64,000 nucleotides of DNA from assembly GCA_937930175.1 (NCBI GenBank), contig CALGLP010000022.1, positions 161,360 through 225,359 of the forward strand, written 5' to 3'. How positions within the stretch are numbered: position 1 is the first letter of the stretch; the number at the start of each line of letters is the position of its first letter. Source of the stretch: an uncultured bacterium. Its GTDB lineage: Bacteria > Omnitrophota > Gorgyraeia > Zapsychrales > Aceulaceae. Positions 54,024 through 55,320 of this stretch are shown here, one piece after another. The notes beneath the pieces are model-generated. The model ran no database searches and was not told the origin of the DNA. It saw only the letters and a program-made list of their open reading frames with translations. The position numbers were made by a program, and so were the translations under genes.

Positions 54024-55016
54024 ATGTATAAGAATCAAATACTAGAACATCTTCGATCGTCGGATCCTTCGCGGCTTTTCGCAGAAGCGGACCAGGTCCG
54101 CACGCACTATTGCGGCGAGGAAGTTCATTTGCGTGGCATCATTGAATTTTCTAATTATTGCCATCAAGATTGTCTTTATTGTGGATTGCGTCGCAGCAAT
54201 GTTACAGTCACTCGCTATCGCATGACTTCAAAGGAGATCATTGCCTGTGCGCAAAAGGCGCTTGCGCTTGCCATTCCTACTGTTGTCCTGCAATCAGGGG
54301 AGGACCTGTTTTACAAGATCGAAGATCTGTGTTTTATTGTTCAGGAGATCAAGAAATTAAATATCGCGATCACGCTATCGATCGGAGAACGTTCTCTTGA
54401 TGACTATCGAAGATTAAGGGAGGCGGGGGCTGATCGATACCTTTTGCGTCTTGAAACTTCTGACGAGAAGCTCTATGCAAAATTAAGACCTGGGCATTCT
54501 TTTTTCGAGCGTTTAAAATGTCTTCAATGGCTTAAAGAATTAGGGTATCAGGTAGGTTCTGGTATCATGGTTGGTTTGCCTGAGCAATCTTTAGAGAGCA
54601 TCGCCGACGACATCTTGCTTTTTCAATCTTTGGATCTGGATATGATCGGCATTGGGCCTTTTTTGCCTCATCCGAATACTCCTTTGGCAGGGAACAAAAG
54701 CATTGGGATCGACATGGTTTTGAAGGTTCTTGCCATAACACGCATTGTGACAAGAAATACCCATATTCCCGCGACAACTGCTGTTGGCACCATTGATACC
54801 CAAGGCCGACAAAAGGCCCTGACTTGCGGTGCTAATGTGATCATGCCTAATATAACGCCCATGCAGTATCGCAAATTCTATGAAATTTATCCTGATAAAA
54901 TATGCTTGTCAGAGGACCCAGCAACATGTAGGGGCTGTGTGGAAAAAATGATTTTGAAAGCTAACCGAAGAGTTGGCACTGGCCCTGGCCACACTTTAAA
55001 AGAGGAAAAGAAATGA
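54024..55016 (+). CDS. hydE: [FeFe]-hydrogenase maturase HydE (radical SAM, BioB-like)
   Basis: CHQDCLYCGLR radical-SAM motif. 330 aa. Confidence 0.85.
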   Translation: MYKNQILEHLRSSDPSRLFAEADQVRTHYCGEEVHLRGIIEFSNYCHQDCLYCGLRRSNVTVTRYRMTSKEIIACAQKALALAIPTVVLQSGEDLFYKIEDLCFIVQEIKKLNIAITLSIGERSLDDYRRLREAGADRYLLRLETSDEKLYAKLRPGHSFFERLKCLQWLKELGYQVGSGIMVGLPEQSLESIADDILLFQSLDLDMIGIGPFLPHPNTPLAGNKSIGIDMVLKVLAITRIVTRNTHIPATTAVGTIDTQGRQKALTCGANVIMPNITPMQYRKFYEIYPDKICLSEDPATCRGCVEKMILKANRRVGTGPGHTLKEEKK

Positions 55017-55287
55017 TCGGTTATTCATCCGCCTACGCAGGATACCACCCCGCAGAACTTCTGCGGGGTGGAGGAATGCGAAAATGCTGTTACCGATGCT
55101 TCGGTGGATGTTTGCCCTTTTCTGAAAAGGCGGATGAATCCTGCGAAGTCCGCCACTGAATCAATGGCGGACGAAGAAGGATCACATATAGAAAGGTACC
55201 ACGACTTTAGTCGTGGGGCTCCATGATCTACACCCCTTATACCCCTCGCTGTATCATGCCCCGTGAAGAAGGTCTTTAAAAAAGATC

Positions 55288-55320
55288 TTGACATCTCAAT
55301 CGTTATATCGTAATATAACG
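55288..55320 (+). promoter_or_regulatory. Sigma70 promoter of trxA with an 8-4-8 inverted repeat over the -10
   Basis: -35 TTGACA 55288-55293, 17-nt spacer, -10 TAATAT 55311-55316. CGTTATAT-CGTA-ATATAACG at 55301-55320. Confidence 0.55.

Follow-up and report, generated by a model that had tools for sequence, protein, structure and literature searches.

What fills the 352-nt gap between hydE, the gene of a radical-SAM maturase of the [FeFe]-hydrogenase, and the thioredoxin gene (trx) that follows it in an uncultured bacterium of the Omnitrophota, and should this filling be regarded as an RNA, as a gene or as neither of them? The gap lies in a stretch of 64,000 nt taken from contig CALGLP010000022.1 (positions 161,360 to 225,359 of the forward strand), the whole of which was analysed and is called the window below, with positions counted from its first letter. 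Immediately behind the hydE stop codon, this gap holds an element dense in palindromes, for which an earlier note, drawn up from the letters alone, had proposed three identities: a structured non-coding RNA, a 3' element stabilizing the mRNA, or a translationally coupled, metal-binding micro-protein. According to our analysis, there is about an even chance that the element is a young, species-specific and non-coding insertion made of palindromes, lodged between the hydE stop codon and an ancestral promoter and operator of trx, and either similar to miniature inverted-repeat transposable elements (MITEs) or repetitive extragenic palindromic (REP) sequences, or grown by template switching.

The element is highly structured on both strands. 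The minimum free energy (MFE) of 278 nt is -108 kcal/mol, against -77 +/- 4.9 kcal/mol for dinucleotide shuffles (0 of 200 shuffles being as good), and the folding z-score is -6.2 on the plus strand and -5.9 on the minus strand, i.e., the two strands fold equally well. In a window-wide scan of 200-nt segments, corrected for composition by regressing MFE on G+C, the element ranks third, and the two other most structured places (22001-22300 and 5801-6100) are likewise clusters of hairpins, in their case of terminators, located right after gene ends. Watson-Crick pairs alone make up its four principal stems, of 10, 12, 8 and 7 bp, without any G-U, and the loops measure 1-4 nt. The longest-ranging of these stems is due to a perfect 12-nt inverted repeat, of which 10 bp are paired in the MFE fold, where it closes a multi-branch domain (domain 1) around hairpin 1; as RNA, the latter amounts to 12 bp with a 3-nt loop. 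Moreover, short modules are repeated nearby in inverted orientation (TCCGCC/GGCGGA twice, CGCAGGA/TCCTGCG and CGCAGAA/TTCTGCG), a pattern to which template switching in replication (PMC8794818) gives rise, as do composite palindromic elements. The absence of G-U pairs from the main stems, their short loops and the equal folding of the strands point to palindromes of the DNA or to very young hairpins, not to an old strand-specific RNA. The earlier note had placed the element and its three hairpins exactly, overlooking only the long-range 12-nt repeat. It was also right in describing the region as richer in G+C than its surroundings, albeit modestly so: 52% in the element (55017-55270), compared to 44% in hydE, 43% in the window and 30% in the remaining spacer, the contrast being large only with respect to the homologous spacers of relatives (23-36%) and modest with respect to coding DNA.

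The second main observation is that the element is specific to this lineage. When synteny was compared in GTDB genomes plus ENA, JGI and Logan contigs, it was absent in all relatives. The closest genome records by HydE are metagenome-assembled genomes of Omnitrophota, and in the four closest loci (L004, L030, L006 and L032, with HydE identities of 80%, 78%, 75% and 74%, respectively), hydE is always kept, the thioredoxin gene is kept in L004, L030 and L032 (in L006, the promoter precedes an open reading frame (ORF) of 114 aa and an ArsR gene), and the promoter with its palindromic operator is retained in 4 of 4, while the element is found in 0 of 4. In these loci, the spacer from the hydE stop to the -35 box of trx is 30-100 nt long, AT-rich and unstructured, and the gap of the window can be aligned with it only from ~55278 onward, i.e., over the promoter and operator. 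The promoter-like site itself (55288-55316), from which the trx operon starts, lies outside the insertion and sets its right limit. More broadly, the z-score of the 250 nt past the hydE stop ranges from -2.0 to +0.8 in 24 other hydE loci, against -5.8 here. The earlier note had made its proposals dependent on homologous loci keeping either the base pairing or the reading frame; what these loci show is the strongest form of the opposite, as they are devoid of the element altogether. Finally, no HydE with an identity between 80% and 100% exists among 5.8 billion proteins, so that the lineage is an isolated one.

All independent ENA and Logan assemblies covering the element (from at least two studies) agree on its sequence with 100% identity; this sequence is therefore neither an assembly artefact nor a chimera. 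Several assemblies nevertheless break inside it: 55053 is the last position of two Logan contigs and 55127 the first of three, while others set in at 55152, 55187 and 55207. These shared breakpoints could stem from a repeat at the level of 31-mers over 55024-55156, from a minor haplotype in 55054-55126 or from a failure of sequencing induced by the hairpins at 4-7x coverage. An inverton flipping between the 12-nt repeats was considered and rejected, its predicted breakpoints (55034/55128) not fitting those observed (55053/55127). In one deposited ENA assembly (ERZ724081, NODE_67438; L040 1-53), an Illumina adapter/index (…GTGACTGGAGTTCAGACGTGTGCTCTTC…) is joined to window position 55208, which falls into the loop of hairpin 3; this is untrimmed adapter contamination. 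The coordinates of the element, of its parts and of the adjacent features are given in Table 1.

Table 1. Features of the hydE–trx intergenic region and its borders, in window coordinates (a dot marks features to which no strand is assigned).
Feature	Position	Strand	Basis and remarks
hydE ([FeFe]-hydrogenase radical-SAM maturase)	54024-55016	+	ORF and Pfam context; closes the tightly packed hydF-hydG-hydE run
48-codon ORF, 5 Cys, ATG overlapping the hydE stop (ATGA)	55013-55159	+	ORF list; judged not to be a gene
Palindrome-rich element (putative insertion), 52% G+C, lineage-specific	55017-55270	.	Folding z-score, G+C, absence in L004/L006/L030/L032, single copy
Perfect 12-nt inverted repeat, left arm ATTCATCCGCCT	55023-55034	.	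blastn self-match, 100% (element positions 11-22 vs 55139-55128)
Hairpin 1	55045-55057 / 55059-55071	.	13-nt arms, 100% complementary, 1 nt between; -24 kcal/mol alone
Small hairpin in domain 1, 7 bp including 2 G-U	55090-55107	+	MFE fold
Perfect 12-nt inverted repeat, right arm AGGCGGATGAAT	55128-55139	.	blastn self-match; MFE
Domain 2, imperfect 22-nt inverted repeat enclosing hairpin 2	55138-55182	.	Repeat search and fold
Hairpin 2, GTCCGCCA/TGGCGGAC	55148-55155 / 55165-55172	.	Fold
Hairpin 3, CCACGACT/AGTCGTGG (CCACGAC / GTCGTGG), 7-8 bp	55199-55206 / 55209-55216	.	Repeat search and fold
C-rich, G-poor, weakly structured tract (20 C vs 8 G in 49 nt)	55217-55265	+	Base counts, negative GC skew
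Sigma-70-type promoter TTGACA-17 nt-TAATAT, overlapped by the perfect palindrome AATCGTTATAT-N4-ATATAACGATT	55288-55323	+	Conserved in L004, L006, L030 and L032
Thioredoxin gene (trx)	55369-55689	+	First in the trx-DUF302-CoA-disulfide reductase/rhodanese-ArsR operon

As for the origin of the element, we infer one of two routes, either of which would yield a cluster of perfect stems made of Watson-Crick pairs only. On the one hand, a small mobile element of the non-autonomous type could be involved, similar to MITEs or REPs, its core of 117 nt being enclosed by the perfect 12-nt inverted repeat, the arms of which are candidate terminal inverted repeats (TIRs) of this unit. On the other hand, it could have arisen from local template-switch errors of replication, copying adjacent sequence in inverted orientation, a process documented as a source of perfect hairpins (PMC8794818). 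With hairpins of the latter type, the element shares perfect Watson-Crick stems, tiny loops and inverted short modules, and its origin would be de novo and specific to one lineage, yet template switching accounts for single stems and not, by itself, for ~200 extra bases of higher G+C. With MITEs (Correia/NEMIS, ERIC, RUP and the cyanobacterial Nezha-type), the resemblance is wider: the element is likewise small (117-nt core, ~255 nt overall), non-coding and intergenic, it is bracketed by a perfect 12-nt inverted repeat that may serve as TIRs, it would form a stable stem-loop if transcribed, it sits in a 3' untranslated region (UTR), and it is present in one lineage but absent from the syntenic site of its relatives. 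It differs from MITEs in that neither a second copy nor a clear target-site duplication nor a matching transposase was found, in that it resembles no known element, and in that its structured sequence extends ~80 nt past the right repeat arm.

REP sequences are imperfect palindromes of 20-40 nt with a GTAG-type head, which occur in tens to hundreds per genome and travel with a REP-associated tyrosine transposase (RAYT) in Proteobacteria. Like these and the bacterial interspersed mosaic elements (BIMEs; also REP doublets forming hairpins, or REPINs), the element is composed of GC-rich palindromes in alternating orientation just past a stop codon, without a U-tract, and its left repeat arm is adjoined by one CTAC (GTAG on the other strand). 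Its hairpins would be expected, as theirs, to stop 3'-to-5' exonucleases. In contrast to them, it is single-copy in ~68 kb, and there is no sequence similarity. Integron attC sites, retron msr/msd, the end hairpins of IS200/IS605, the hammerhead core and the hairpin of diversity-generating retroelements were also considered, and all were rejected, as their defining features or neighbouring genes are missing.

An unrelated insertion of 407 nt is found between hydG and hydE in L032 (2094-2500, identical in L033), where the window has 6 nt. It features 25-nt TIRs (2288-2312 and 2474-2498) that are 84% complementary, folds with a z-score of -6.4 and has no match in Rfam; its end motif (GAGATTGTTTT) is present in a third copy at 2098, and the whole resembles a single MITE-like element or two nested ones. 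Thus, sporadic and strongly structured insertions do occur in the hyd operon of this clade. This TIR-bounded insertion of L032/L033 and the 12-nt repeat around the 117-nt core are two indirect hints that the element itself was inserted.

Several observations weigh against our preferred reading as a whole. First, a mobile origin predicts copies, and no second one was recovered in any sequence searched: neither by blastn (word size 7) in the 64-kb window, all fetched loci and 3.9 kb of extra source sequence, nor by a single-sequence covariance model of 55022-55184 run over 328 kb (window and loci), which retrieved only its self-match, nor by three patterns of 21-25 nt in viral contigs, nor by blastn in plasmid and phage collections, while one 20-mer gave four chance matches in JGI metagenomes, all within unrelated coding DNA. 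Hence, the element is single-copy within the ~68 kb of the source genome that were examined, a coverage with which a family of low copy number could have been missed, and the other GC-rich palindromes of the window (22155-22181, 5979-5994 and 32483-32507) contain no sequence alignable with it. Second, the target-site duplication is unconvincing: no direct repeat abuts the 12-nt arms (55022 and 55140 differ), and the only possibilities are an AT (2 nt) within the arms and the 6-nt ATGATC, present at 55013 and 55224 but not next to the arms; either could be due to chance. Third, hairpin 1 has no U-tract, while canonical terminators with a U-tract exist elsewhere in the window. Finally, perfect stems that have not decayed could reflect selection for an RNA function.

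If the element is a palindromic insertion, any effect of it on RNA would be a matter of position. Because it sits in the 3' untranslated tail, the hydFGE RNA would bear a very stable hairpin beginning 29 nt past the stop codon, followed by further stems and then by the C-rich tract, which might be a Rho-loading site. Two generic consequences are plausible: the mRNA of the hyd maturases would be shielded from 3'-to-5' exonucleases, and the separately regulated trx operon would be partly insulated from read-through. REP hairpins at 3' ends are known as mRNA stabilizers, the malE-malF case of E. coli being an example. The stabilizing 3' hairpin of the earlier note thereby survives as a generic result of the landing site, but not as a demonstrated, selected function. 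With intrinsic (Rho-independent) terminators, the element has in common a strong GC-rich stem soon after the last gene of an operon, but none of its stems is followed by a U-tract, unlike the canonical terminators of the window. A terminator scan returned 0 canonical sites in 54500-56000, and the tail behind hairpin 1 reads AGGAAUGCG; lacking a U-tract, this hairpin leaves a role in termination unproven.

Could the structure be that of a functional RNA after all? Such an RNA would be specific to the species or genus, and act either as a 3'-UTR-derived small RNA or as a cis switch. In the latter case, the pairing of 55023-55034 with 55128-55139 would alternate with that of ATCCTGCG (55138-55145) with CGCAGGAT (55036-55043), which was read directly off the sequence; this 8-bp pairing crosses the stem of the 12-nt repeat, and the two are therefore mutually exclusive. 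A device of this kind might couple hydrogenase maturation to the downstream thiol-redox operon. Besides these exclusive pairings, a functional RNA would account for a folding z-score of about -6, for a closed multi-branch domain of 54 predicted pairs and for stems that are intact and invariant across all assemblies. However, the Rfam scan advised by the earlier note (Rfam 15, gathering thresholds, whole window) has a cobalamin riboswitch located elsewhere as its sole match, a permissive scan of 54900-55450 yielded noise (best 16 bits, E = 1.8, far under any threshold) and nothing beyond it even at E <= 10, and ARAGORN detected neither a tRNA nor a tmRNA. Admittedly, Rfam is limited to described families, but the element is also missing at every related locus and in every collection scanned, its strands fold alike, its main stems are without G-U pairs, and loops of 1-3 nt are commoner in DNA palindromes than in evolved RNA hairpins. 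Moreover, nothing promoter-like precedes it on the plus strand: the sole such site is the conserved promoter of trx, downstream of the element, which consequently cannot be the leader of trx and is not placed as a riboswitch or other 5' leader would be. The conserved structured RNA that had been proposed thus finds neither a family in Rfam nor a homologue in any collection searched, and we regard a functional RNA restricted to this species or genus as unlikely, although it deserves consideration.

A narrower version of the same idea supposes that a lineage-restricted RNA was recently born in the hydE 3' UTR and that its exclusive pairings switch the read-through from hyd into the ArsR-controlled thioredoxin/CoA-disulfide-reductase operon. 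If true, hydrogenase maturation would be linked to the control of thiol/persulfide redox state, but this scenario is improbable.

It is quite improbable too that the element is the remnant of a decayed gene that once stood between hydE and trx, or a piece of sequence copied there from another part of the genome. Its 52% G+C does fall within the coding range of this genome, and the hydE frame stays open for 69 further codons past the TGA, with a borderline codon score of 0.015. Yet this extension has no homologue, no translated frame matches any protein or family, none of the relatives carries a gene in this place, and dense perfect palindromes are not what gene decay is expected to leave behind.

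Some features do speak for the 48-codon ORF as a gene. As the earlier note had seen, its ATG does overlap the hydE stop as ATGA at 55013, and a GAGG resembling a Shine-Dalgarno (SD) sequence lies 7 nt upstream, as would suit translation by coupling to hydE; its CCxxCxxxC spacing behind a GGG motif and its position next to two radical-SAM enzymes could befit a Cys-rich, metal-binding micro-protein, or one akin to ribosomally synthesized and post-translationally modified peptides (RiPPs), devoted to the maturation of the H-cluster. Its Cys are five, however, and not six as had been counted. No Pfam or NCBIfam family matches it, SCIFF-type models included; a word-indexed search of the 5.8 billion proteins with three open frames concatenated gave nothing at E <= 10; and among 1.84 billion representatives, phmmer, run exhaustively, retrieved no more than four weak matches, to long tandem-repeat proteins hit in several short stretches, which are compositional noise. 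In the same vein, every open frame remained without a match when compared by tblastn with all loci, and the ORF does not occur in relatives because the underlying DNA is absent there. With a codon-usage score of -0.20, it falls under 99.7% of the real 48-codon gene segments of the window, and 65% of spurious short ORFs score higher. Nor is an open frame exceptional here: over much of the element, four of the six are free of stop codons, one holding an ORF of 89 codons on the minus strand, since the DNA is palindromic and poor in stop codons. The plus-strand ORF is called in no source contig, gene callers having taken minus-strand ORF fragments on truncated contigs. As a conserved gene, the micro-protein is effectively refuted, and in any other form it is very hard to credit. 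Last, the idea that the hydE TGA encodes selenocysteine or is read through, hairpin 1 being similar to a selenocysteine insertion sequence (SECIS) and HydE gaining a tail of 69 residues, has next to no chance of being correct in spite of the in-frame extension and of the very stable hairpin that starts 29 nt past the UGA, as this TGA (55014-55016) is a normal protein end at which all HydE homologues stop (74-80% identity, same ...GHTLK(K) position), the extension is without homologue, and the apex of the hairpin lies ~42 nt from the UGA with a 3-nt loop (ACU) devoid of G, whereas a bacterial SECIS is nearer to the UGA and has conserved G and U residues in its apical loop.

If the element is indeed a young palindromic insertion, it matters little, being one further intergenic insertion of this type; it would possibly be a first glimpse of MITE-/REP-like DNA in Omnitrophota and a clean case of a cluster of perfect hairpins that formed de novo within a 3' UTR. 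It also calls for caution, as palindromic DNA can bring about, as by-products, both an extreme folding z-score and an ORF equipped with an SD and an ATGA overlap. The element would gain in importance only if transcript data revealed a distinct RNA species or showed that read-through into the redox operon is affected.

Regarding the surrounding genes, the order on the left side is hydA, CMD, TM1266-like, aspartase-like lyase, hydF (51270-52523), hydG (52527-54017) and hydE. The three genes found between the [FeFe]-hydrogenase gene and hydF/G/E (48024-55016; L001 1-6993), i.e., CMD-family, TM1266-like and aspartate-ammonia-lyase-like (Lyase_1), may form an accessory set belonging to H-cluster maturation. 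The start of hydE is called differently in public records (54024 vs 54129; P0001), which gives 330 aa from the ATG at 54024 and 295 aa in the cluster representative; the form of 330 aa is the right one, because homologues align from its first residues. On the right side, the thioredoxin gene is followed by genes for a DUF302 protein, a fusion of CoA-disulfide reductase and rhodanese, and an ArsR-type regulator. The strong promoter and the palindrome ahead of this operon are conserved nearly base for base in L004 (2848-2885), L006 (5010-5045), L030 (~3560-3600) and L032 (~3620-3660), unlike the remaining intergenic DNA of these four relatives, which does not align. In our view, the palindrome probably serves the ArsR-type repressor (57999-58259) as its operator, and this repressor would be a persulfide-responsive regulator similar to BigR/SqrR.

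Elsewhere in the window, the cobalamin riboswitch (RF00174, 57 bits, E = 1.3e-11) is located at 30130-30287 on the plus strand, upstream of an ORF at 30320-32449. In each of the multi-hairpin clusters at 22043-22200 and 5915-6000, both right after gene ends, a canonical terminator with A/U-tracts is accompanied by an additional perfect palindrome rich in G+C. These extra palindromes (GAGGCGCCCTGC-AAA-GCAGGGCGCCTC and GGGCCCTGCAGGGCCC) share a CCCTGC/GCAGGG core and may represent a short REP-like motif of this genome. Finally, a direct repeat of 117 nt (73% identity) is found at 5698-5814 and 34889-35005, its first copy being part of a gene with a cold-shock domain (CSD, called in L050), and the pair probably corresponds to two csp paralogues.

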